A stretch of 64,000 nt of DNA, taken from the NCBI GenBank assembly GCA_964016885.1, contig CAXHJY010001155.1, positions 62,001 to 126,000 on the forward strand, given 5' to 3'. Origin of the DNA: Eledone cirrhosa. Its lineage: Eukaryota. The notes beneath the pieces are model-generated. The model saw nothing but the letters and a program-made list of their open reading frames with translations, had not been told where the DNA came from and did no database searches. Position numbers and translations under genes: made by a program. This document shows, piece by piece, positions 14,899 through 51,500 of the stretch (the first letter of the stretch is position 1; the number at the start of each line of letters is the position of its first letter).

Positions 14899-15368
14899 AT
14901 CATCATCATCGACGTTTAACTTCCGTGTTCCACATTTGCATGGGTTTGGACGGGGGTATTTCCCACTTGAGGCAAGAGTGATTGTCTTGCTCGCATAGGA
15001 CTGTCTGGCGGGTTTTCTACAGCTGGATGCCCTTCCTAACACCAACCACATTTACAGTGTGGGGCTGGGAGGTTTTTACCGTGTTGCCTACACGGCGACA
15101 TTACAGCGTGGACTGTGTGTTTTTTGTCGTGACACCTACACAATCTCATTTGGTTCGGCCTGGATGTTGTGGCACCAACATAACTTTACATTGAAAGGGG
15201 CGGTGTGGATGGGGTGGGGGTGGTGCGACGGGGGTGTATTTTGTTAGAGATGCCTACTGATTGTAGTAGGTTTTACTTTGTATTTAGGTAAGGCGGGTCT
15301 TCTCTATTACTGAGTACCGCCAAAGGTCTCGGTCCAGTGTCATTGTCTTGGAGAGGTGTAAGTGTGTG
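14899..15368 (-). mobile_element. RTE family 2, 3' fragment (ORF end plus 3' UTR)
   Basis: [27 protein letters not shown] followed by a UTR nearly identical to 51382-51777. Confidence 0.9.
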
Positions 15369-15591
15369 TACATATATATATACATATATATATACATATA
15401 TATATATACATATATATATACATATATACATATATATATACATATATATATATACATATATATATATACATATATACATATATATATATATACATATATA
15501 TATACATATATATATACATATATATATACATATATATATATACATATATATACATATATATACACATATATATATATATATACATATATAT

Positions 15592-17640
15592 GTAGATGAA
15601 GCAGTCAAGGCCAAGAGACAGGCATGGAAAGAATGGAAGAACGGGGGGAGCAGGGTACATTACATAGAGACCAAGAGGGAAGCTAGGCGACAAGTATACT
15701 TAGCTAGGAGGGAAGCAGAGGATAGAAAATTCAAGCATGTTTTACAACGTGAGGACCAGAAACAGGAGGTATTCAAGATTGCGAGGCAGTGTGTCAGAGA
15801 TAGTTGTGATGTCATTGGAGAGAAGTGTATCCGGAATGATAAAGGTGAGCTTGCCCTCACAAGTGCTGAGAAGAAAGATGCATGGAAGAGTCATTATGAT
15901 AGATTACTAAATGAGGAGAATGCATGGGAAGAAGAGACCCTACCCCACGTAGACCCTATAGAGGGACCAGCAGTACAAGTCAGCGGCAGCGTAGTAAGTA
16001 AGGCAATCAGAGATATGAAGATAGGGAAGGCAACCGGTCCATCGGGTATAGCTGCCGAGATGCTGAAGGCATCTGGGTCTGTAGGTCACACTATAACCAC
16101 ACGTATCGTTAACCAGGTAATACTAGAGGGGGCCATACCAAAAGATTGGTGCAGTAGCACCATTGTCAACTGCTACAAAGGTAAAGGCGATGCACTAGAT
16201 AGAGGAAACTATAGAGGTATAAAGTTGATGGACCAGGTCATGAAAGTAACAGAAAGAGTTATAGCACAGCTGATTAGGGACCGGGTGAATATAGACGAGA
16301 TGCAATTTGGGTTTGTACCAGGGAAAGGCACCACTGATGCCCTCTTCCTTGTGAGGCAATTACAGGAAAAGTACCTAGCTAAAAGTAAGCCACTCTACTT
16401 GGCATTTGTCGACCTTGAGAAAGCCTTTGACAGAGTTCCACGTGCAGTAATCTGGTGGGCTCTTAGAAAACTAGGAGTAGATAAATGGCTTGTGAAAGCG
16501 GTACAAGCCATGTATAGGGGAGCAGTCAGCAAAGTTAGGATTGGCAATGAGTATAGCGAGGAATTTAGCGTACAGGTTGGGGTCCACCAGGGCTCTGTTC
16601 TTAGCCCTCTCCTGTTCATCATAGTCCTGCAGGCAATAACGGAGGAGTTTAAGACCGGATGCCCATGGGAACTCCTGTATGCTGATGACCTCGCACTCAT
16701 AGCTGAATCTATGGTAGAACTAGAGAATAAATTCCAAACCTGGAAGCAGGGACTAGAGAGAAAGGGCCTCAAAGTCAACATGACAAAGACTAAGGTCCTT
16801 ATAAGTAGACGAGAAAACAGAACCCAGATCCCCTCAGGGAAATGGCCTTGCTCAGTATGTAGGAAAGGTGTAGGTAGGAACTCCATTCTCTGCCCCAAAT
16901 GCAAACAATGGGTACACAAGAGATGTAGCGGGATCTCAGGAAGCTTAATTAAGAATGTAGGATTCACATGCAGCAGCTGTGCTGAAACAGCAAGCAAACA
17001 GCCACAGGAAACAAGTACCACCAATCTCTGGGAGGGCCCTGTAGAAACAGTAGACAGCTTCTGCTACCTAGGTGACCGAATTAGCAACGGAGGTGGGTGC
17101 TCAGAAAGTACAATAACTAGGGTAAGAACGGGATGGAAGAAGTTTAGGGAACTACTACCACTGCTAGCTGCAAAAGGCTTCTCCCTCAGAATGAAAGGCA
17201 GACTGTATGATGCGTGTATCCGAACAGCGATGTTGCATGGTAGTGAGACCTGGGCGCTGAAGGTGGAAGACTTACGTAGATTAGAGAGAAACGATGCCTG
17301 CATGCGCCGATGGATGTGTAACAGTAATATACGTGAACGACAAAGCATAAAGGAATTGAGAGAGAGACTGAGCATAAGAGGAATCAAATGCTGCGTGCAG
17401 GAGAGGCGGTTACGCTGGTATGGACATGTGATGCGTATGAAGGATGACAGCTGCATAAAAAGGTGCAGAGCACTAGAAGTTGATGGAAACCGCGGAGTGG
17501 GGAGACCCAAGATGACTTGGGATGAGGTGATAAAAGCCGACCTTACCCAACTACACCTCTCAAAGTCAATGACACACGACCGTGACTTCTGGCGTCACGC
17601 AGTAATACAGGGTACCCGACCTCCCATGGGTACATGCTGA
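15592..17640 (+). CDS. RTE reverse transcriptase (partial, no start codon) with PHD-like C4HC3 insert
   Basis: [46 protein letters not shown] and RRLRWYGHV motifs. The part of the ORF-track entry upstream of 15592 is microsatellite. Confidence 0.9.
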
Positions 17641-18927: not shown

Positions 18928-18976
<49 letters not shown>

Positions 18977-18981
<5 letters not shown>

Positions 18982-19515
18982 AACTTTGGGAGGGTCATGT
19001 TGCCAATAAGAAACACATGCACTAGTTGCTTTCACTCCAATTTATAATCAATTAAAAAATGTTGTTTTTTTTAAATTATAAATTTATTAATTTCCGGTTG
19101 GTTGGATGGTTCCACAATCGGAGGGTTGTTCATATATTGTCAAAGTTCTTTCGTCACACATTCTGTGACCTCTTCAGTGACTGGGGATTCTTTTCTTTGT
19201 TTTGTGCCTCTCCTTTGTTCTGTCCTACGCCATCTTGTTTTTGTGTGCTTAGTTTGCGCATGTGTTACATCCAGGTGTCTGTGTGTGTTTTTATTTGTTT
19301 ATTTATTTGTTTATTTACATGTTACTGGTTGGTTGGTTGTTCTATGTGTTTTCAATTTGTCCTTAATTGTAAGTTGTGATGTTGCTATTCCATTCATGTT
19401 TTCTATTTAATTTTGTGAAAGCAACTGGTGCGTGTGTTTCTTATTGGCAACATGACCCTCCCAAAGTATAACAATATCGGTTTCAACGCACGTTTTCAGA
19501 TAAAGAATCTTGCTA
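18977..19515 (-). mobile_element. PLE pseudo-LTR insertion: long minus arm (18977-19412) plus short inverted plus arm with extra tail (19413-19515)
   Basis: Minus arm starts with LNRKHEWN (compare LNRKNEWN at the end of the 40855 ORF), contains an HHR and ends CATGACCCTCCCAAAGT; the same terminus is inverted in the second arm. Confidence 0.8.
19139..19181 (-). ncRNA. Minimal type I hammerhead ribozyme
   Basis: GUCA-CUGAAGA-G-GUCACA gaaug UGUGAC-GAAA-GAACU-U-UGAC: intact core, 6-bp stem II, 4-bp stem I, minimal stem III. Confidence 0.8.
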
Positions 19516-21672: not shown

Positions 21673-22169
21673 CACATTATATACACGGTTATTAAGTAAC
21701 AGAATATTGACTTACTCCAACACCTCTATCACCACCACCAATCCACTACCACCACCACCAGTCGGTCAAGCAGTACATCAAGTAAATTACATGTATAGAT
21801 TTTATATCATCAACATTGTGTGCATCAATGCATTATGAATATCATCATCATCATCAACTATATGAGCTTCTCTGTGTGTATTAGCATTGTGTCCTACTGG
21901 TTAGAAATTTAAGCTAAGAATAATAGTTTTCAATGTTTACACAAGGCCTGCAATTTTGCGAGGAAGAGAAGGTTAATTAAATTGACCCAGGTGCTTCAGA
22001 GGTACTTTATTTTATTACCTCCAGAAGGAAGAAAGACAAAGTTGACCTTGGCAAGAAAGCAAAGAACTGGAACAAATATTGTTCAGCATTTTTCTGATAC
22101 CCTAATGCTCTACCAATCCCCACCTCATTTTGAACTCAGAATAAGATTGAGTCGGATGCCAAGGACAAT

Positions 22170-23616
22170 AGAATGAAGCCTGTACATTGTATAAACTGGT
22201 AGTGCTGGTGCCACAATAGAATGCACCCTGTATTTGTGTAAACTGGTAGTGTTGGTGCCATAATAAAATGCACTCAGTACATTGTATAAACTGGTAGTGA
22301 TGGTGCCACAATAAAATGCACACAGGACATTGTGTAAACTGGTAGTGCTAGTGCCATGATAAAATGCACTCAGAACATTGTGTAAACTGGTAGTGATGGT
22401 GCCACAATAAAATGCACTCAGAACATTGTGTAAACTGGTAGTGATGGTGCCACAATAAAATGCACTCAGAACATTGTGTAAACTGGTAGTGATGGTGCCA
22501 TAATAAAATGCACTCAGAGCATTGTGTAAACTGGTAGTGCTGGTGCCACAATAAAATTCACTCAGAACATTGTATAAACTGGTAGTGATGGTGCCACAAT
22601 AAAATGCACACAGGACATTGTGTAAACTGGTAGTGTTAGTGCCATGATAAAATGCACTCAGAACATTGTATAAACTGGTAGTGCTGGTGCCACAATAAAA
22701 TGCACTCAGTACATTGTATAAACTGGTATTGCTGGTGCCACAATAAAATACACTCAGTACATTGTATAAACTGGTAGTGCTGGTGCCATAATAAAATGCA
22801 CACAGAACATTGTATAAACTGGTAGTGCTGGTGCCATAATAAAATGCACTCAGAACATTGTGTAAACTGGTAGTGCTGGTGCCACAATAAAATTCACTCA
22901 GAACATTGTATAAACTGGTAGTGCTGGTGCCACAATAAAATGCACTCAGAACATTGTGTAAACTGGTAGTGCTGGTGCCACAATAAAATGCACTCAGAAC
23001 ATTGTATAAACTGGTAGTGCTGGTGCCACAATAAAATGCACTCAGTACATTGTGTAAACTGGTATTGCTGGTTCCACTATAAAATGCACTCAGAACATTG
23101 TGTAAACTGGTAGTGCTGGTGCCACAATAAAATGCACACAAGACATTGTGTAAACTGGTAGTGCTGGTGCCACAATAAAATGCACACAGGACATTGTGTA
23201 AACTGGTAGTGCTGGTGCCATAATAAAATTCACTCAGAACATTGTGTAAACTGATAGTGCTGGTGCCATAATAAAATGCACTCAGTACATTGTGTAAACT
23301 GGTAGTGATGGTGCCATAATAAAATGCACTCAGTACATTGTGTAAACTGGTAGTGATGGTGCCACAATAAAATGCACACAAGACATTGTGTAAACTGGTA
23401 GTGCTGGTGCCACAATAAAATGCACACAGGACATTGTGTAAACTGGTAGTGCTGGTGCCATAATAAAATTCACTCAGAACATTGTGTAAACTGATAGTGC
23501 TGGTGCCATAATAAAATGCACTCAGTACATTGTGTAAACTGGTAGTGATGGTGCCATAATAAAATGCACTCAGTACATTGTGTAAACTGGTAGTGCTGGT
23601 GCCATAATAAAATGCA
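22170..23616 (+). repeat. 48-bp minisatellite, about 30 units, with a 240-bp higher-order duplication
   Basis: Unit AAACTGGTAGTGCTGGTGCCACAATAAAATGCACTCAGAACATTGTGT; 23101-23340 is nearly identical to 23341-23580. Confidence 0.97.
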
Positions 23617-23777
23617 CCAATTACACTCTGTAAAGTGTTTGGAATTAGGAAGGGTATGTAACTATAGAAACCATGCCAAATAAGGAATCTATGGAAAAGA
23701 TGTGGTTCCCCAACCAGTCCAGTCTTGGACCATAACAACTTGTCCAACCCATGCCAACATGGAAAGTAGCACATAAC

Positions 23778-23808
<31 letters not shown>
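23617..23808 (+). mobile_element. RTE/SINE-type 3' tail continuous with the minisatellite
   Basis: CACTCTGTAAAGTG..TTAGGAAGGG..TAGAAACC..AACCCATGCCAACATGGAAA..(GAT)n. Confidence 0.75.
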
Positions 23809-25299
23809 CACATTAAAAGTCACTTGCCCAGTGACAATATAATTTGAACATGAAGCAATATTGTTTGCTGAGAATCCAGCTTGTTAAGCACCGAGTCAGC
23901 CATGTGTATTAATAGAGTTCGGTTGTCAATGAAAACAGTGGATGAGAGTGATGAGAAATCAATAATATTGTGATCAGTTCCATTGATTACATATTGGCCA
24001 TTTGAGCAGTCTCTTTATTGTGCATTATTAGGGAGTGGGGGTCGAGGAGATCTTAATCATACAGGAATAGACAAATAATTTGGACTGGGTTATTGTTCCT
24101 ACTACTCACAATGGATTATCATCATAGCGATGATGATGGTAATGATGGAGGTGATGATGATAATGATGGGGATGACAATGATGATTTAGACCAGCAGAGA
24201 ATGTGTTTACTTGAGAGGACTTTGTAACAGAAAAGTATTTAAAGAAATGTGGCAATGATGATTAGTGTGTTACCTAACATATGACAGGTAATCTTGAGAG
24301 TATATATTTGCATCGGTAAACAACAGTAAGTAAATAAATATAGAAATATAAGTAATTAAATGAAAAATGAATTAAAATAAATATAGGTATTTATGTGTTT
24401 ATATGTGCGTACTTCAGTATAGCGTTCTCTACCTCTCTCATTCACTAATTACCCACCACTTCACTCAGTATGTATACTCCTCTTTCAATCCCTGTGTTAA
24501 TTCTCATTTATTTTCTCTTCCACTTCCTATATGCTGTCAAACATAACATCAGACTATCCATCCAACACACTCTAGTTATACATGCCTGTAAGTCATGCTT
24601 GCTCAAGTTACTAAACATATTTTCTATATGATCACATATTTCAGTTAGTGAAGTCAGCCTATTATTATCGATCTGAATAACCAATACAATGGTGAAAGCA
24701 TTTACAATTTACCCTTTCATAATCCTATTTCTAATGAAAAACTGTATTTGAATTAATCAAAGAATTGTGAGGGTTTTAGTACAGTTTATAGTTGTTTCAT
24801 TATTAACATATACTTGTAATAAAAGGTCCTTATGTCAAATTATCTTAGAAACATTTAAATTAACAACGAACCCTTTAAAACAAGTGGTTTTAGGAAGGCT
24901 GGTAAAAAGTGGTAAACAGCTTAAATTTTGAATTTTATTCAGCAGGACTGTCAATTCTTATTTAAAGAATCTTAAAGAACATCTTAACTTTTTAATATCA
25001 TCACTGTATCAAGAATTTCCCTTTATTTTAAATTTTAATATATACATCATCATTTTTTATATTGACTTTTCCATGCTGGCATGGGCTGGATGAAACTTTT
25101 TGAGGCAGTGTATTATAGCTAGATGCACTTCCTGAAACAAAATCTTTTCATTGCTTCTTATGACACACAGAGATATGGTGTACCTATTCTAAACTGGATA
25201 CACATGGTTTGGATATATACACACACATACACACTTCCCTTGCTGGCGTGGATTGATTCAATGTTTGACAGTCAGATGCCCTTCCTGACACATATATAT

Positions 25300-37342: not shown

Positions 37343-37802
37343 TCATCATCATCAACGTTTAACGTCCGTGTTCCACACTTGCATGGGTTTGGACGGGGGT
37401 TTTCCCACTTGAGGCAAGAGTGATTGTCTTGCTCGCATAGGACTGTCTGGCGGGTTTTCTACAGCTGGATGCCCTTCCTAACACCAACCACATTTACAGT
37501 ATGGGGCTGGGAGGTTTTTACCGTGTTGCCTACACGGCCACATTACAGCGTGGAGTGTGTGTTTTTTTGTCGTGACACCTACACTATCTCATTTGTTTCG
37601 GCCTGGATGTTGTGGCACCAACATAACTTTACATTGAAAAGGGCAGTGTGGATGGGGTGGGGGTGGTGCGACGGGGTGTATTTTGTTAGAGATGCCTACT
37701 GACTGTAGTAGGATTTACTTTGTATTTAGGTACGGCGGGTCTTCTCTATTACTGAGTACCGCCATAGGTCTCGGTCCAGTGACATTGTCTTGGAGAGGTG
37801 TA
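37343..37802 (-). mobile_element. RTE family 2 3' fragment
   Basis: [24 protein letters not shown] plus UTR and (CAT)n tail. Confidence 0.9.
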
Positions 37803-38251
37803 CACATATATATATATACAGATATACATATATACAGATATATATATATATACAGATATACATATATACAGATATACATATATATATATATATATATATA
37901 CAGATATATATATATATATATATATACAGATATATATATATATACAGATATATATATATACAGATATATAGATATATATACAGATATATATATATATACA
38001 GATATATAGATATATATATATATACAGATATACATATATACATATACAGATATACATATATACAGATATATATATATATATATACAGATATATATATATA
38101 CAGATATATATATATACAGATATATATATATATATACAGACATATATATATACAGATATATATATATATATATATACAGATATATATATATATATACAGA
38201 TATATATATATACAGATATATATATATATACAGATATATATATATATACAT

Positions 38252-38676
38252 ATTGTTATACTTTGGGAGGGTCATGTTGCCAATAAGAAACACACGCAGA
38301 CGCCCGAATGTGGTGCATGCGCAGACTGAGCGCACGACGCGCACGCAGAGAGAGGGTGGCGTGGCATAGAAGGAGGGAGGGGCGCAGAGGCAGGGAGGGG
38401 AGTCCCCAGTCACTGGGGGGGTCGCGGACTGTGTGACGGGGGGACTGTGACTATGTATGTACAACTGTCTGGTTGTGGAGGCGGCCAGCCAACCAGAAAT
38501 TTGTAGGTTTGTAGATTTGTAAATTTATTAATTTAAAAATATGTAATAAATTGAAGTGAAAGCAACTGGTGCGTGTGTTTCTTATTGGCAACATGACCCT
38601 CCCAAAGTATAACAATATCGGTTTCAACACACGATTTCAGATAAAGAATCTTGCTAAACAAATTCAGAAACGAAAT
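38252..38676 (+). mobile_element. PLE pseudo-LTR insertion (short inverted arm ~38252-38297 plus long plus arm) with A-to-G hypermutated segment
   Basis: Same termini as the 19 kb element; ~38298-38520 is collinear with the reverse complement of ~19070-19285 but with many A replaced by G. Confidence 0.85.
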
Positions 38677-40300: not shown

Positions 40301-40369
<69 letters not shown>

Positions 40370-40372
40370 TAT
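39320..40372. repeat. (TA)n/(TACA)n microsatellite tract; similar tracts at 15370-15590, 32550-33328, 35925-36460, 37803-38250, 42510-42750, 43395-44348, 47137-47490, 48180-48594 and 51778-52100
   Basis: Direct inspection. Confidence 0.98.
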
Positions 40373-40576
40373 ATTGTTATACTTGGAGAGGGTCATATTT
40401 GTGTAATATTGACAGAATTAATAACAGAACACACTCACTGTTTGGTTGGTTTTCACTTCTCGCTTCTGTGTCTTTTATATCGGTAATCTAATAAACTCGG
40501 TCCTCAATGTTGCCATTGACTGACTGGCGGTCAAAAATAATACAGATACAATATAGACACAAACACATATATATTT

Positions 40577-40620
40577 TATCATAAATCTTTCGTTGCACAT
40601 CTGTAACATCGTCAGTGGTG
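40577..40620 (-). ncRNA. Degraded minimal hammerhead in the PLE 3' pseudo-LTR
   Basis: CACCA-CUGACGA-U-GUUACA gaug UGCAAC-GAAA-GAUUU-A-UGAUA: core intact, stems mismatched. Confidence 0.6.
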
Positions 40621-40854
40621 CTATATTTTCCTCCTGTTGTATTGCATGTCTACGCCATTTTTATTCAGTCTGTCTATATATTTATTTATTTATTTGCTTC
40701 TTTGTTTATTTTATTTTGTCTTCTTTGCGCATGCGTTTGCGTGTGTGTATAGTGTTTTGTTTGCTGTGTGATGGGTGACTAGTGTGTGTTTATGTGCTTG
40801 TTGTTATTGTGCTTGTGTATGTATTTATTTATTTATTTATTTATTTTATTTTAT

Positions 40855-42267
40855 TTACACTTCTCTTAGGTCAGTGTTGTTTGTTTGGGTGTTGTTGTTA
40901 TTCCATTCATTCTTTCTGTTTAGCCTTGGTCTTCTAATTTCTATTTCCCTGGCCTCTCTGATTTGCCTATCTGCTGGGTCATTTCTATGTTTAGATATTA
41001 TTCTAATTTCTATGTTGTCTATGTTACCATCATGTTGTTGTCTAGCATGTTCGTATAGTACTGACCCGTTTTTTCGTCCTTTTAGTTCTCCCCAGTGTTG
41101 GTCTATCCTTTCACCTATGCTACGAGCTGTCTCACCTATGTATGTTGTTGTCATGTTTCTGCAAGTACCCTCTGTACATCTTATGCTATAGACTACGTTT
41201 CTAGTTTTACAGTTTATCCGGGGGTTCACCTTACATATGATACATTTCCTATTGGTACAGTGGGTTTTCTTAAAAGGGTAGGTTTTGCTGATCAGGGATT
41301 TTACCACCTTTATTTTTAAGTGGGTCTTTCTCAGGGCCTTTCTACACTGGTTAGCTAATTTCCCTCCAGGGGTAGCGTCCACAAACATGACACTCTGGTA
41401 TCTCTGGTTGTCGTACCATGAGGTGGCTTTCCCTATCTTATGTCTAGCCCTATCTACGCTATTCCATGATTTGCTCCTGTATAATGGGCAAATTCCTTTC
41501 ATGTCCAGTTCTATGAGGGTCTTATACTTCTCCATGGCTCCTTCGTATACTCTGATTCTGTCTCTTTGGTTGTAGCCAGAGAACTGCATGCGGTTGATGA
41601 AGTGTTGGATGTGTCTTTCCATTTCTGTTGGGTCGCACATGCGGGACACATTCTTCATCACTCGTACCAAATCTCTGATCAGAATATTAAACTTAGCACT
41701 ACTGGACATTGCTGAGTTTTTGAGTATCAGGTATTTGGAGGCCATGGGTTTAGCATAGTGTGAGTGGAGAATTTGGGCTCTCTCGTCTATAGTGTTAATC
41801 CAGAGTTCTGTGTCTAATACAGGTAGTCTATTGTTAGGGTGTTTGGAAGGGAAGTCGATAGTTACAGTTATACTCTGGTGTATGGAATTAGCTATCTGCT
41901 GGATGCTTTCCATCGTGCTACGTCCTAAATCAAACTTGTTAGTGCTCTCTAGTGGGGGTGTTCTTATAACTGTATTGATATCGTCTACATAACGAGAGTA
42001 CATGATGAGGTCTATGGAGCTCTCATTAAGGAGATCTTTAAGTCTCCTTTCCCACCATACCATGAAAGGGTTGGCAACATCACCAGCTATGCTGACGCCG
42101 ATGGCTGCTCCCTCATTTTGGGTGTAGATCTTCTCGTTGAACTTAAATATGTGGCCCTTTAGGGTAGTTTTGATACTAGCCCCTATTGCATGTGCGACCA
42201 TTTTTCTTACCTGATCATTGTTTTGGGGGGTCCATATAGCTTTGGTACATCCAATCCACCTTCCCAT
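40855..42267 (-). CDS. PLE polyprotein fragment (RT plus GIY-YIG endonuclease)
   Basis: 470-aa open frame containing the RT and GIY-YIG motifs. Confidence 0.85.
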
Positions 42268-42512
42268 GGGAATCTTTTGAGGTTATGGTGGGGGGTCTAC
42301 CTCTTATAGGTCTACTAGGGCAGAAACATCTAAGGCCATGGCTGTCTAGGTAGTCAGTGTCGTAGGTAAGTCTAAGTAGGAGGCCCAGTTCGTCTGTGTC
42401 GACGTCGCAGAACTCCACCTCACTCTCAATGATCATCTCCACACATCTTTTCACAGCAAAATCAATGTTAATGGATGGGTACAGTGACACCACATCCATG
42501 CTGCCTATAAAC

Positions 42513-42830: not shown

Positions 42831-42938
42831 ATAGGAACCAGTAAGACCCCGACAGCTGAGCTCAAGCCGTTTCGACGGCTAATTCTCAGAATTAGCCGTC
42901 GAAACGGCTTGAGCTCAGCTGTCGGGGTCTTACTGGTT

Positions 42939-43111: not shown

Positions 43112-43394
43112 TATACTTTGGGAGGGTCATGTTGCCAATAAGAAACACACGCACCAGTTGTTTACACTTCAATATATTATCATAAATTTATAAATTTAGG
43201 AATTTATAAATTTCCGCTTGGTTGGTTGGGTCCACAACCAGATGATAGTTCATATATTGGCAAAGTTCTTTCGTCACACATTATGTGACCTCTTCAGTGA
43301 CTGGGGATTATTTTCTTTGTTTTTGTGCCTCTCCTTAGTACTGTCCTATGCCCTCTTGTTTCTGTGTGTGTATTGTCAAATTCAGAAACGAAAT
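43110..43394 (-). mobile_element. PLE pseudo-LTR insertion with HHR (43259-43301) plus inverted tail remnant
   Basis: Sibling of the 19 kb element; minus strand GUCA-CUGAAGA-G-GUCACA..UGUGAC-GAAA-GAACUU; plus-strand CAAATTCAGAAACGAAAT at the right end. Confidence 0.85.
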
Positions 43395-45494: not shown

Positions 45495-47136
45495 TCATCA
45501 TCATCATCATCATCAACGTTTAACGTCCGTGTTCCACGCTTGCATGGGTTTGGACGGGGGTAGTCCCACTTGAGGCAAGAGTGATTGTCTTGCTCGCATA
45601 GGACTGTCTGGCAGGTTTTCTACAGTTGGATGCCCTTCCTAACACCAACCACATTTACAGTGTGGGTCTGGGAGGTTTTTACTGTGTTGCCTACACGGCC
45701 ACACTACAGCGTGGACTGTGTGTTTTTTTGTCGTGACACCTACACGATCTCATTTGTTTCGGCCTCGATGGCGCGGCACCAACATAACTTTACATAGAAC
45801 GGGGTGGTGGGACGGGGTGTATTTTGTTAGAGATGCCTACTGGCTGGAGTAGGTTTTACTATATATTTAGGTAAGGCGGGTCTTCTCTGTTACTGAGTAC
45901 CGCCAAAGGTCTCGGTCCAGTGACATTGTCTTGGAGAGGTGTAAGTGTGTGATGTCGGAGTTTATCAGCTCGTCCCAGGTTTTTCTAGGTCTGCCTATTC
46001 CGTGACTACCGTCTATCTTTATTGCCCTGCACTTTGTTATACAGCTATCGACTTTCATGCGCATCACGTGTCCATACCAACGTAGCCTTCTCTCGAGTAA
46101 ACAACATCTGATCCCTCTTATCTCTAATTTTTTCCTTAGTTCGTTTATGCTTTGCCGTTCACGTATATTACTGTTACACATCCAGCGGAGCATGCAAGCT
46201 TCGTTCCTCTCTAGTCTGCGTATATCCTCTGCACACAATGCCCAGGTCTCACTGCCATGCAGCATTGCTGTTCGTATGCAGGCATCGTACAACCTGCCTT
46301 TCATTTTTAGTGAGAACCCTTTAGCAGCTAATAGTGGTATAAGCTCTCTGAACTTTTTCCAACCAGTTCTGACTCTAGCTACAGTACTTTCAGAGCACCC
46401 TCCCCCACTGCTGATTTTATCGCCCAGGTAACGGAAGCTGTCCACTATTTCTATAGAACCCTCTGCGCAATTGAAAGAGCTAGTAGTTTGTGGGCACTTG
46501 CTGCTACTTATTGCACCAGAGCACCGGCCACATGTAAAATCTATGTTCTTAGTTAGCTTACCTGTGATCCCACTACATCTTTTATGCACCCATACTTTGC
46601 ATTTAGGACATAAAATGGAGTTTCTACCTACGCCTTTCCTACACACCGAGCACGACCATTTCCCAGAAGGGACCGCCGCCTTGTTTTCTTTCCTACAAAC
46701 TAGTACTTTGGTCTTAGCCAGGTTAATTTTAAGTCCTTTTGACTCTAGGCCGTGCTTCCATGTTTGGAATTTCTTCTCTAGCTCGGCCATTGATTCCGCT
46801 ATGAGTGTCAGGTCGTCTGCGTATAGGAGTTCCCATGGGCAGCCTGTCTTGAACTCCTCTGTTATAGCCTGAAGGGCAATAATAAATAGTAGTGGACTGA
46901 GAACAGAGCCCTGATGGACGCCAACTTTTACGCTAAACTCTTCACTATATTCGTTGTTAATTCTAACCTTGCTGACTGTTTCTTTATACATGGCTTGTAT
47001 AGCCCTCACAAGCCATTCGTCAACGCCTAGTTTTCTAAGAGCCCACCAGATAATGGAGCGGGGGACTCTGTCGAAGGCTTTCTCCAAGTCGACAAAAGCT
47101 AAGTAGAGGGGTTTACCTTTAGCTAGGTACTTCTCC
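45495..47136 (-). mobile_element. RTE family 2, 5'-truncated (open frame 47136 to 45867)
   Basis: [33 protein letters not shown]-like insert..RRLRWYGHV, then UTR and (CAT)n. Confidence 0.95.
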
Positions 47137-47158
47137 ATATATACATATATATATATAC

Positions 47159-47273
<115 letters not shown>

Positions 47274-47274
47274 C

Positions 47275-47333
<59 letters not shown>

Positions 47334-47489
47334 CATATATATATATATATATACATACATATATATATATATATATACATACATATATATATATATTATA
47401 TATATACAATTATATACATATATATACATATATATATATATACAATTATATACATATGTATACACATATATATATATATATATATATAA

Positions 47490-47811
47490 ATATCTTTAAG
47501 TCGTTTGGAAGCCTCGACAATGCAAATGGGTAAATCTCCGGGTAACAAGATCCGGTGGTGGAGAGAGAGATGTAAGTGGGTGTACGTTGAGATACGTGGT
47601 GTTTATAAGATGTGTAGAAGAATGAAGGAAAGAGCATAAAGGATAAAATAAAAATAACAACACGAGAGAGAGTTACATTGGGAGAGATTTAATAGTCCCT
47701 ATATATTTCGGATTCACATCCATCAACTGGGGGTTTTTCTGGGGTGGGGGAAGGTTGTCTGTCGGTAAGGTGCGAAACGCGTCCTCCGCTGTTTGTTGTT
47801 TTGAATATCAA

Positions 47812-48180: not shown

Positions 48181-48403
48181 TATACATATACATATATATA
48201 TAGACATATTTATATATACATATTTATATATACATATACATATATACATATTTATATATACATATATATATATACATATATGTATACATATATATATATA
48301 TACATATATGTATTCATATATATATATACATATATGTATACATATATATAAATATATGTATACATATATATACATATATGTGTATATATATATATATATA
48401 TAC

Positions 48404-48443
<40 letters not shown>

Positions 48444-48453
48444 GTATATATAC

Positions 48454-48491
<38 letters not shown>

Positions 48492-48501
48492 GTATATATA
48501 T

Positions 48502-48550
<49 letters not shown>

Positions 48551-48561
48551 CATATATATAC

Positions 48562-48594
<33 letters not shown>

Positions 48595-51500
48595 GAGAGA
48601 GTGAACGACAGAATAATTAAAACAAGACTTGTCCTCAATAGAACTATGGTGACAGTAATATCTGCGTACGCACTCCAATCCGGACTGCCCGGCACTATAA
48701 AAGTCAGATTCTATGAGACATTGATGCTCGCTACCTCCCAAATAACCGACAGTGACTATATAATTATTGCAGGCGACCTAAATGGTCACGTTGGACAATA
48801 TTGTGACGGCTACAACGAAATCCATGGAGGCTATGGGTTTGGTACTAGAAATGAGGAAGACTCCAGAATCCTGGAATTCTGTGACGCAAATAACCTAACT
48901 ATCTGTAACACTAACGTAAAAAAACGTGACAATCACCTGATCACCTATAGATCCGGGGAACACACAAGCCAGGTAGATTATATCCTTACCAGAAGACGTG
49001 ATAGAGTGTCTGTTGTAAACACTAAATCCCTCCCCCATGAAGAATGCACCTCCCAACATAGACTGATAATTAGCGACCTCGTAGTCAGGACGAGACGTAC
49101 TCGACAGCAGAAGAGGACTATCCTCAGGAGAAAAATATGGAAGCTAAAGGACCCCACAGCCAGAAATAAATTTCAAAGCATATTACTTGATGCTTTCGAC
49201 AGTAAGGAAGAGCATTTAGAGTCGGACACTATAGAGGGACAGTGGGAATTTCTGAAAGCAAACCTGCTGATGGCGGCAGACGATGTCTGTGGCTGGAGCA
49301 GGCCTGTAGGCAGGAGGAGAGTAACATGGTGCTGGAACAGTAAGGTGGAGGGGTCAATTAAGGCCAAAAAGCAGGCTTGGAAAGTATGGCGGGATGGGGG
49401 AAGTAGAGAAGACTATCAAGTGGCCAGGAGGGAAGCTAGGAGACAAGTGTACTTCGCAAGAAGGGAAGCAGGGGAAAGAAAGTTCAAGCATGTTCTACAA
49501 CGCGAGGACCAAAAACGTGAGGTGTTCAGGATTGCTAGGCAATGTGTCAAGGAAAACCGTGATATTGTCGGGGAGAAGTGTGTACTTAATGATGACGGCG
49601 TACTTTCCATCACCGACACTGATAAGAAGGTAGCTTGGAAGTGTCACTATGAAAGGCTACTAAATGCGGAGAATAAATGGGAGAAAGACAGTCTCCCCCA
49701 CATCGACCCAATAGAGGGACCAGCAGTGTTAGTCGAGGGTAGTATAATAAGTAAGGCAATCAAGGATATGAAGACGGGTAAGGCGGCTGGGCCTTCGGAA
49801 ATAGTTGCTGAGATGCTGAAGGCATCTGGCACGGTGGGACACACCATGGTCACCCGGATAGTTAACCAAGTCGTACAGAATGGGGTTGTTCCGAAGGACT
49901 GGCATAGCAGCATCATCGTTAACTGTTATAAGGGTAAAGGAGATGCCCTAGATAGGAGTAACTATAGAGGCATTAAATTAATCGACCAGGTCATGAAGGT
50001 CACAGAAAAAGTAATAGCGCAACTAATCAGAGAGAGAATTGACATAGATGAAATGCAGTTCGGGTTTGTGTCAGGCAAAAGTACCACAGACGCTCTTTTC
50101 ATTGTACGACAACTACAGGAGAAGTACCTAGCTAAAGGTAAACCCCTATACTTAGCTTTTGTCGACTTGGAGAAAGCCTTCGACAGAGTCCCCCGTTCTA
50201 TTATCTGGTGGGCTCTTAGAAAACTAGGTGTTGACGAATGGCTTGTGAGAGCTATACAAGCCATGTATAAAGAAACAGTCAGCAAGGTTAGAAATAACAA
50301 CGAATATAGTGAAGAATTTAGCGTAAAAGTTGGCGTCCATCAGGGCTCTGTTCTCAGCCCCCTACTATTTATTATTGCCCTTCAGGCTATAACAGAGGAG
50401 TTCAAGACTGGTTGCCCATGGGAACTCCTATACGCAGACGACCTAACACTCATAGCTGAATCAATGGCCGAGCTAGAGAAGAAATTCCAAACATGGAAGC
50501 ACGGCCTAGAATCAAAAGGCCTTAAAATTAACCTGGCTAAGACTAAAGTTCTAGTTTGTAGGAAAGAAAATAAGGCGGCGGTCCCTTCCGGGAAATGGCC
50601 ATGCTCAGTGTGTAGGAAAGGCGTAGGTAGAAACTCCATTTTATGTCCCAAATGCAAAGTATGGGTGCATAAAAGATGTAGTGGGATCACAGGTAAGCTA
50701 ACTAAGAACATAGATTTTACATGTGGCCGATGCTCTGGTGCAATAAGTAGCAGCAAGTGCCCACAAAATACTAGCTCTTACAACTGCGCAGAGGGCTCTA
50801 TAGAAATAGTGGACAGCTTCCGTTACCTGGGTGACAAAATCAGCAGTGGAGGAGGGTGCTCTGAAAGTACAGTAGCTAGAGTCAGAACTGGATGGAAAAA
50901 GTTCAGAGAGCTTATACCACTATTAGCCGCTAAAGGGTTCTCCCTAAAAATGAAAGGCAGGTTGTATGATGCCTGCATACGAACAGCAATGTTGCATGGC
51001 AGTGAGACCTGGGCATTGTGTGCAGAGTATATACGCAGACTAGAGAGGAACGAAGCTTGCATGCTCCGCTGGATGTGTAATAGTAATATACGTTAACGGC
51101 AAAGCCTAAACGAACTAAGGAAAAAATTAGAAATAAGAGGGATCAGATGTTGTTTACTCGAGAGAAGGCTACGTTGGTATGGACACGTGATGCGCATGAA
51201 AGTCGATAGCTGTATAACAAAGTGCAGGGCAATAAAGATAGACGATAGCCACGGAATAGGCAGACCTAGAAAAACCTGGGACGAGCTGATATACTCCAAC
51301 CTCACCCACTTACACCTCTCGAAGACAATGTCACTGGACCTTTGGCGGTACTCAGTAATAGAGAAGACCCGCCTTACCTAAATACAAAGTAAATCCTACT
51401 ACAGTCAGTAGGCATCTCTAACAAAATACACCCCCGTCCCACCACCCCCACCCCATCCACACCACCCCCTTCTATGTAAAGTTATGTTGGTGCCACACCA

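Follow-up and report, generated by a model that had tools for sequence, protein, structure and literature searches.

A dense run of A>G changes across a Penelope-like element copy and its hammerhead motif in Eledone cirrhosa, probably left by RNA editing before reverse transcription

The window analysed here is a stretch of 64,000 nucleotides from Eledone cirrhosa (assembly GCA_964016885.1, contig CAXHJY010001155.1, positions 62,001 to 126,000, forward strand), located on a small contig (C1182) of the 3.0-Gb genome. A hammerhead-shaped stretch is found at 38409-38451 of the window, inside an insertion of about 430 nt that is set between TA repeats. The insertion is a 5'-truncated copy of a Neptune-type Penelope-like element (PLE), and the A>G changes that cross its hammerhead motif very likely originate in editing of the RNA from which it was copied. 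The features of the insertion are as follows.

37800-38249, no strand: TA-rich microsatellite target, left side; (TA)n resumes on the right from about 38677
38250-38298, minus strand: inverted 5' arm, 49 nt, 100% complementary to 38570-38618
38288-38676, plus strand: sense arm of the 5'-truncated PLE insertion, 389 nt; 3' part of the pseudo-long terminal repeat (pLTR) of subfamily B2, from -121 to +267 relative to the hammerhead start, ending with the optional tail
38296-38543, plus strand: cluster of A>G changes, 44 of 102 adenosines, by comparison with B2
38409-38451, plus strand: type I minimal hammerhead, apparently edited; stem I 38409-12/38448-51, stem II 38421-26/38432-37, helix III 38441-42/38445-46
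38413-38419, plus strand: CUGANGA box, with A6 (38416), N7 (38417) and A9 (38419) changed to G
38438-38441, plus strand: GAAA box, with A13, A14 and A15.1 changed to G
38447, plus strand: cleavage-site nucleotide H17, A in the parent subfamily and G here
38547-38676, plus strand: unedited 3' zone, 0 of 49 adenosines changed; contains the start codon (38593) of the open reading frame (ORF) and both 3' end points of the family

References for subfamilies A, B1 and B2 were built from 60 loci taken in order along C1. The window copy aligned best with B2 (score 1006, against 937 for B1 and 880 for A), from which it differs by 44 A>G, one G>A, two C>T and no T>C changes, in addition to seven transversions. 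The share of A>G among the transitions (43/46) corresponds to a p value of about 1e-22. One of the 44, at 38296, falls where the sense arm overlaps the inverted arm and may be something other than an edit. An earlier examination of the letters alone, called here the sequence-only reading, had claimed that editing-type changes erased the catalytic core of the motif. The comparison with B2 agrees with this, and chance does not account for it. The implied restriction of the change to the core did not hold, as only nine of the 44 changes fall in the hammerhead (A6, N7, A9, A13, A14, A15.1, two stem II adenosines and the cleavage-site A). A 5' G neighbour was found at 4 of 44 edited adenosines vs 17 of 58 unedited ones (p = 0.014), and an enrichment of G on the 3' side is not evident in the window copy alone (10/44 vs 10/58). 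Two G runs of 7 and 6 nt have the parental lengths, and many of the changes lie outside homopolymers. The inverted arm copies the unedited 3' zone only and overlaps the sense arm by 11 nt of microhomology.

Two further copies of the family with unedited hammerheads are present in the window.

19139-19181, minus strand: unedited subfamily A hammerhead, situated in a separate insertion, on its inverted arm (18973-19415); not the nearest parent
43112-43376, minus strand: third window copy, subfamily A, with an unedited hammerhead at 43259-43301

The first of these had been taken as the unedited sibling of the 38409 copy. Its hammerhead is indeed unedited, but it belongs to subfamily A, in which the cleavage triplet ends in UU, and the true parent is B2, with A at the cleavage site. 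Measured against this copy plus its flanks, the window copy shows 48 A>G and 3 G>A.

The hammerhead ribozyme requires A6, A9, A13, A14 and A15.1 as invariant adenosines and a nucleotide other than G at H17. The 38409 copy departs from this at all six positions, since G now stands at the five invariant core adenosines and also at the cleavage-site A (38447), a change that had been overlooked. The copy is regarded as a hammerhead relic, for which loss of catalysis is predicted from general hammerhead chemistry. The C-U-G of the core is kept, one extra G precedes stem II, both strands of stem I are intact, and stem II retains 6 bp with two G-U pairs (38424 and 38426 edited). All stems of the edited motif thus still pair, as had been pointed out; this survival is uninformative, because A>G turns A-U into G-U automatically and cannot alter G-C. 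The motif was recognised by its sequence pattern and by published features of PLE minimal hammerheads. Both the B2 parent and the 19139 copy display the CUGANGA and GAAA boxes, a UH site, helices I and II, the extra base before stem II and a self-complementary helix III. When the 38409 and 19139 copies were searched in Rfam as short stretches, neither was recognised as a hammerhead, and no hammerhead was among the matches listed (150 of 213) for the window. At N7 a minority of the unedited copies have G (4 among the first 100 listed, with one edited locus in addition), and this is commoner where there is a second change.

The identity of the family was assessed on the ORF of a full-length relative (L175), which matched RVT_1 with E = 1.5e-3 at 321-419 and GIY-YIG with E = 4.4e-4 at 669-711. 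Two shorter ORF pieces gave nothing in Pfam at E <= 0.01, and a PDB sequence search with the PLE ORF gave 0 matches. Atlas neighbours of the ORF were found at 0.96-0.98, some of them carrying GIY-YIG or RVT_1, and a C-x4-C-x2-C arrangement upstream of the GIY-YIG match, identified by eye, represents the CX2-5CxxC motif. Copies of the family display partial pLTR tandems, an inverted 5'-truncated arm, an optional tail and (TA)n flanks, and they end at two 3' positions, 58 nt apart, with near equal frequency. The pLTR tandems, inverted arms, optional tail, CX2-5CxxC motif and (TA)n target are features of Neptune-type PLEs (PMC8557442). A pattern that covers the opening 30 nt of the hammerhead, with A6 intact, gave 16,060 matches in the genome, arms and not insertions being counted. 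The founding of B2 by an edited master was considered and rejected, as the lineage changes comprise 11 A>G vs 8 T>C. Near the N-terminus of the ORF an Asn-rich repeat segment was observed (L174:8252-9501), reminiscent of the N-rich inserts in rotifer Penelope ORFs (PMC3846280).

The window copy is one of a set. Across the genome, 31 independent edited events were collected against about 16,100 hammerhead matches, with 1264 A>G, 22 T>C, 84 G>A and 59 C>T changes. The events were sought with the edited copy, an A6>G pattern and flank-only patterns, and were picked by eye, the weakest having 6-10 A>G; one flank pattern pinned at weak sites gave three matches only. An old copy with symmetric changes (L228; 60 A>G, 40 T>C) and two that are too lightly changed (L170, L224) were left out. 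In a position-ordered sample, one of 60 loci was clearly hyper-edited. The rate of editing outside the hammerhead, determined in 18 events, varied with the base on the 5' side (0.46 each for A and U, 0.26 for C and 0.16 for G; p = 8e-23) and was highest with G on the 3' side (0.48; p = 4e-9). Depletion of 5' G is a mark of ADAR (PMC2873906).

The edited stretch measures 240 nt in the window copy; elsewhere in the family it takes in as much as about 1 kb of ORF. The highest edit sharing between the window copy and another event is a Jaccard index of 0.55, and the patterns are not nested; within the searches run, neither an edited parent locus nor progeny of the window copy was found. The spread of an edited sub-lineage was rejected: each of the 36 matches that have the hottest flank edit shows either a single change or a pattern particular to its locus. 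In four copies (L057, L058, L038 and L042) hyper-editing deep in the ORF recodes codons of the reverse transcriptase (RT) and nuclease with no added stops in the long frames.

The clearest link to double-stranded RNA comes from two palindromic loci, L172 and L173. In L172 (851-1629), the inverted arm shows T>C at 18 of the 52 T that are paired and at 1 of the 47 that are not; for A>G in the sense arm, the figures are 24 of 66 paired adenosines and 0 of 24 unpaired ones. L173 (1346-1873) carries T>C at 12 of 55 paired T, and A>G at 16 of 75 paired adenosines and 1 of 51 unpaired ones. In both palindromes the changes of the two arms fall on the same genomic strand and are nearly confined to the overlap between the arms. 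This one-strand pattern matches the expected trace of an edited fold-back RNA, and L172 and L173 are each read as such an RNA re-inserted whole. The edited antisense arms also led to rejection of the idea that editing is always sense-only. Exons for an adenosine deaminase (PF02137) are present in four places in the genome, one with ADAR-type motifs by eye; one ADAR locus yielded no ORF at a 300 aa cut-off. The spectrum of changes, the ADAR-type neighbours and the confinement to duplex in these two loci support the proposal that A-to-I editing preceded reverse transcription.

The sequence-only reading had also proposed that editing acts as a switch aimed at the PLE ribozyme. This was not borne out: the edits span 240 nt, edited copies with an intact core exist, and A6>G occurs in 61 of 16,121 matches vs 71 for a neutral T>C control in stem II. 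Three heavily edited copies with an intact core carry 142, 84 and 43 A>G, and in L057 and L058 the ORF is hyper-edited and the hammerhead core intact. In 18 events selected by their flanks, editing was found at 47 of 106 core adenosines, 45 of 148 other hammerhead adenosines, 206 of 541 in the upstream flank and 27 of 155 in the downstream flank; the stem I adenosine was edited in 8 of the 18. Core editing is slightly above that of the flanks, with no depletion and perhaps a mild excess. A core edit was present in 11 of 12 and 14 of 18 flank-selected events, and RNAs with an edited core are therefore not barred from insertion. As ADAR needs duplex RNA, the edited core adenosines suggest that the motif was already unfolded when it was edited. 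Once editing is accepted, the hammerhead was probably a bystander, and a regulatory switch aimed at the ribozyme is unsupported.

It had further been argued that a ribozyme-dead RNA was still copied and that cleavage at this hammerhead is not required for insertion. The first part stands, in that an RNA with a predicted-dead core was copied. The second is weakened by the geometry of the element. Because copying begins some 170 or 230 nt downstream of the cleavage site, any copy holding the motif spans that site and came from RNA that was uncut or re-joined there, edited or not, and the truncated window copy carries no record of the upstream pLTR ribozyme. Dispensability of cleavage is thus plausible, but it is not provable from the window copy alone and it is not new, as it has been published in vitro: hammerhead mutants inserted normally, unprocessed RNA was reported as the main substrate, and no reads ended at the cleavage site (PMC11167929). 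A pile-up of 5' ends at the cleavage site was not seen here either (1 of 220 arms, in a sample biased to motif-holding arms). In the same sample, the 5' ends of 48 arms cluster 41-80 nt upstream of the hammerhead start.

The edits also serve as barcodes. In head-to-head pairs both arms share element-sense edits in 10 of 10 cases examined, with 447 of 464 G in common, a few of them subfamily variants. Such sharing was found in L033, L040/L041, L042/L048, L098, L080, L060 and L062, reaching 104/104. Of the two arms, the shorter one extends further at the 3' end in some pairs, which simple snap-back copying cannot explain. The simplest reading is that one sense RNA was copied from both nicks, conversion between arms being the alternative. 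A full-length insertion (G000 C3:328.617-328.624 Mb; L174:6265-9501 and L175:1-2841) has 5' and 3' pLTRs flanking a long open frame. Its two pLTRs have 14 A>G in common, located to either side of the cleavage site and with A6 and A9 among them; the inverted arm shows 13 of the 14. Both pLTR hammerhead cores are changed, and G runs of 6, 12 and 14 are present in the arm and the two pLTRs. This one case points to a circle, or to a template jump back along the same RNA.

In the last 130 nt of the element, 29 of 1274 adenosines were edited, and 27 of the 31 events have 0 or 1 edit there; in the first 15 events the count was 1 of 657. That this 3' zone can never be edited was rejected, because L171, L172 and L173 carry 9, 13 and 4 edits in it. 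The near absence of edits there would be explained if an antisense start lay close to the AT-rich stretch or if the element's protein shielded the zone. The edit boundary at this zone (38547-38676 in the window) coincides with an AT-rich stretch for which a hairpin is predicted. The odds seem evenly balanced for a wider model in which ADAR scars are single-molecule barcodes: one sense RNA would be copied twice, once per nicked strand, giving the head-to-head arms, the pLTR segment would be re-copied through a circle or a template jump, giving both pLTRs, a dead hammerhead would block none of these steps, and the 3' zone would mark an antisense start or a part protected by bound RT.

Taken together, we give a probability of about three in four to the reading that the window copy was written to germline DNA from an ADAR hyper-edited duplex RNA of the PLE, in which the hammerhead was hit as a bystander. 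A B2 element would have been transcribed, and the transcript would have paired with an antisense partner from the ORF as far as about 135 nt beyond the hammerhead start, unfolding the ribozyme as well; fold-back pairing of this kind is seen at two other loci. To judge from the spectrum and context, ADAR would then have converted about 40% of the adenosines. After priming at the TA-rich site, the PLE enzyme would have begun copying in the unedited 3' zone and continued across the hammerhead, still uncut, with I read as G. Truncation and the addition of a short inverted arm would have ended the reaction, the architecture being visible in the insertion and the chemistry presumed. Within the searches run, the copy has left no progeny.

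Several observations weigh against this reading. Duplex confinement was observed for the paired arms of L172 and L173; the partner strand of the window copy was not among the finds, and its own inverted arm spans the unedited zone only. Most events were found by edited queries, so that the counts are lower bounds and the rates conditional. The Pfam matches on the PLE ORF fall under the curated cut-offs. In addition, after correction for context the core showed an excess of edits, with an odds ratio (OR) of 2.6 (p = 0.01) when 12 events were first tested; all pattern sites, including several hot flank sites, had been removed from the null for this. A fairer test on 18 events with exclusion per event gave an OR of 1.5-2.0 (p = 0.04-0.14).

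The core excess would be expected if, with the same ADAR origin, a dead 3' hammerhead let the template escape cutting and become over-represented among insertions, so that editing would help survival, the reverse of host defence. The core edit in 14 of the 18 flank-selected events fits such an account, as does the editing of A6, A9 and A13 in 6-7 of 18 events despite a preceding G. It is nevertheless unlikely. The core was intact in the RNA behind some 16,000 copies, and cutting is therefore no strong barrier; the stem adenosines are raised about equally, significance is lost once the weakly edited downstream flank is dropped, and metazoan PLE minimal hammerheads are poor cutters as monomers (PMC4209133). 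Less improbable, if still doubtful, is that editing followed processing, the RNA having been cut by hammerheads, ligated to a circle, edited and then copied. This sequence of events differs in timing only and is compatible with the bystander reading. The circle model proposed for PLEs (PMC4209133) and the 14 A>G shared by the C3:328.6 Mb pLTRs on both sides of the cleavage site speak for it, but a template jump back on the same linear RNA, or pLTR conversion, gives an identical picture. Moreover, just one of 220 arms in the biased sample starts at the cleavage site, unprocessed RNA was the main substrate with no reads ending at the site (PMC11167929), and the window copy is too short to tell.

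Origins other than RNA editing fare worse. Clustered hypermutation by RT is familiar from retroviruses, and most events are strand-specific relative to the element, as RT error, a nucleotide-pool imbalance or a DNA deaminase might produce. Such causes are very improbable here, given changes confined to paired arms, with both arms altered on one genomic strand, and ADAR-type neighbours. Deamination of the cDNA would read as T>C in the sense strand, which is near absent, and APOBEC yields sense-strand G>A, not A>G (PMC4866542). An artefact of sequencing or assembly could be suspected because the window lies on a small contig and because G runs vary from 6 to 18 in other edited copies, where homopolymer lengths are thus unreliable. 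Yet run lengths in the window copy match the parental ones, many changes stand alone, inverted arms that were read separately show the same changes (447/464 G) and the events are on many chromosomes. Nor would G be the ancestral state, as A is found in 16,060 matches. Artefact and ancestral G are therefore the most improbable of the explanations weighed.

Further elements were observed in the window. A second, diverged PLE family is present at 40365-42282 on the minus strand. It has an RT/GIY-YIG frame of 475 aa as well as a hammerhead-like motif of its own, which ends at 40619, and its divergence from the main family is symmetric. At 42848-42926, within a PLE-like fragment, about 36 bp form a perfect inverted repeat around a 6-nt loop. 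Long RT frames of the long interspersed nuclear element (LINE) type, which we take to be RTE-like, are found at 15292-17640 (plus), 45867-47495 (minus) and 48352-51096 (plus). A tandem repeat of about 48 nt that reads as a long open frame (22125-23819; L225) is also present in an intron of the C25 deaminase gene.

The value of these results lies in the family-wide barcodes more than in the 38409 motif alone. RNA edits are normally transient, and here they are inherited, at a low rate (31 events vs about 16,100 motif matches; 1 of 60 loci in the ordered sample). The edited set provides in vivo support for the in vitro finding that insertion does not require cutting by the PLE hammerhead. It also makes questions on the PLE cycle testable from sequence, namely template polarity, the origin of the inverted arm and pLTR, and circles. 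Whether the PLE template is sense or antisense was left open in PMC3846280; the barcode model, if true, would settle the polarity for this PLE family and would show RNA editing entering the germline through a Penelope element. A literature search, made partly by title and abstract and with subscription journals largely outside its coverage, returned no report of edited PLE copies or of hyper-edited retroelements in assemblies.

The hammerhead resembles the PLE minimal hammerheads described in PMC4209133, being of type I in the pLTR, with a short helix I, an extra nucleotide before stem II, G10.1-C11.1 and a tiny self-complementary helix III. In that work no activity was found for a minimal hammerhead as a monomer. 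The published helix II has 7-8 bp vs 6 bp here, the window copy is without the invariant adenosines, and editing is not mentioned in the parts of that report consulted. A 2026 preprint presents retrozymes as PLE derivatives. PAc Poseidon (PMC11167929) is alike in having two 3' start sites in the ORF start that give the optional tail, AT-rich targets and extension of both target strands, and its hammerhead mutants were inserted. It belongs to another clade and was studied in vitro only, whereas here predicted ribozyme-dead templates were used in vivo; its hammerhead overlaps the start codon and the present one lies 184 nt upstream of it.

A>G scars have been described in avian retroviruses. In Rous-associated virus as well as avian leukosis virus about half of the adenosines were changed to G in long terminal repeat (LTR) or inverted-repeat regions, which was attributed to ADAR and fixed by reverse transcription (as summarised in PMC12925331). 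The present family shares A>G in a retroelement with these viruses, and differs from them in being an endogenous, non-viral PLE in an assembled animal genome, with at least 31 independent insertions and edits that cross a ribozyme core. APOBEC scars in vertebrate LTR retrotransposons, read as G>A from the cDNA and reported absent from 19 invertebrates (PMC4866542), are alike in their detection against a subfamily consensus, their strand bias and their neighbour motif; the changes described here are A>G, very likely from RNA editing, and at two loci depend on pairing. A-to-I editing of repeats is ubiquitous in coleoid cephalopod RNA (PMC9068888). Repeat-directed ADAR editing is common to both settings, but there the marks are in RNA only, and here they are in DNA.
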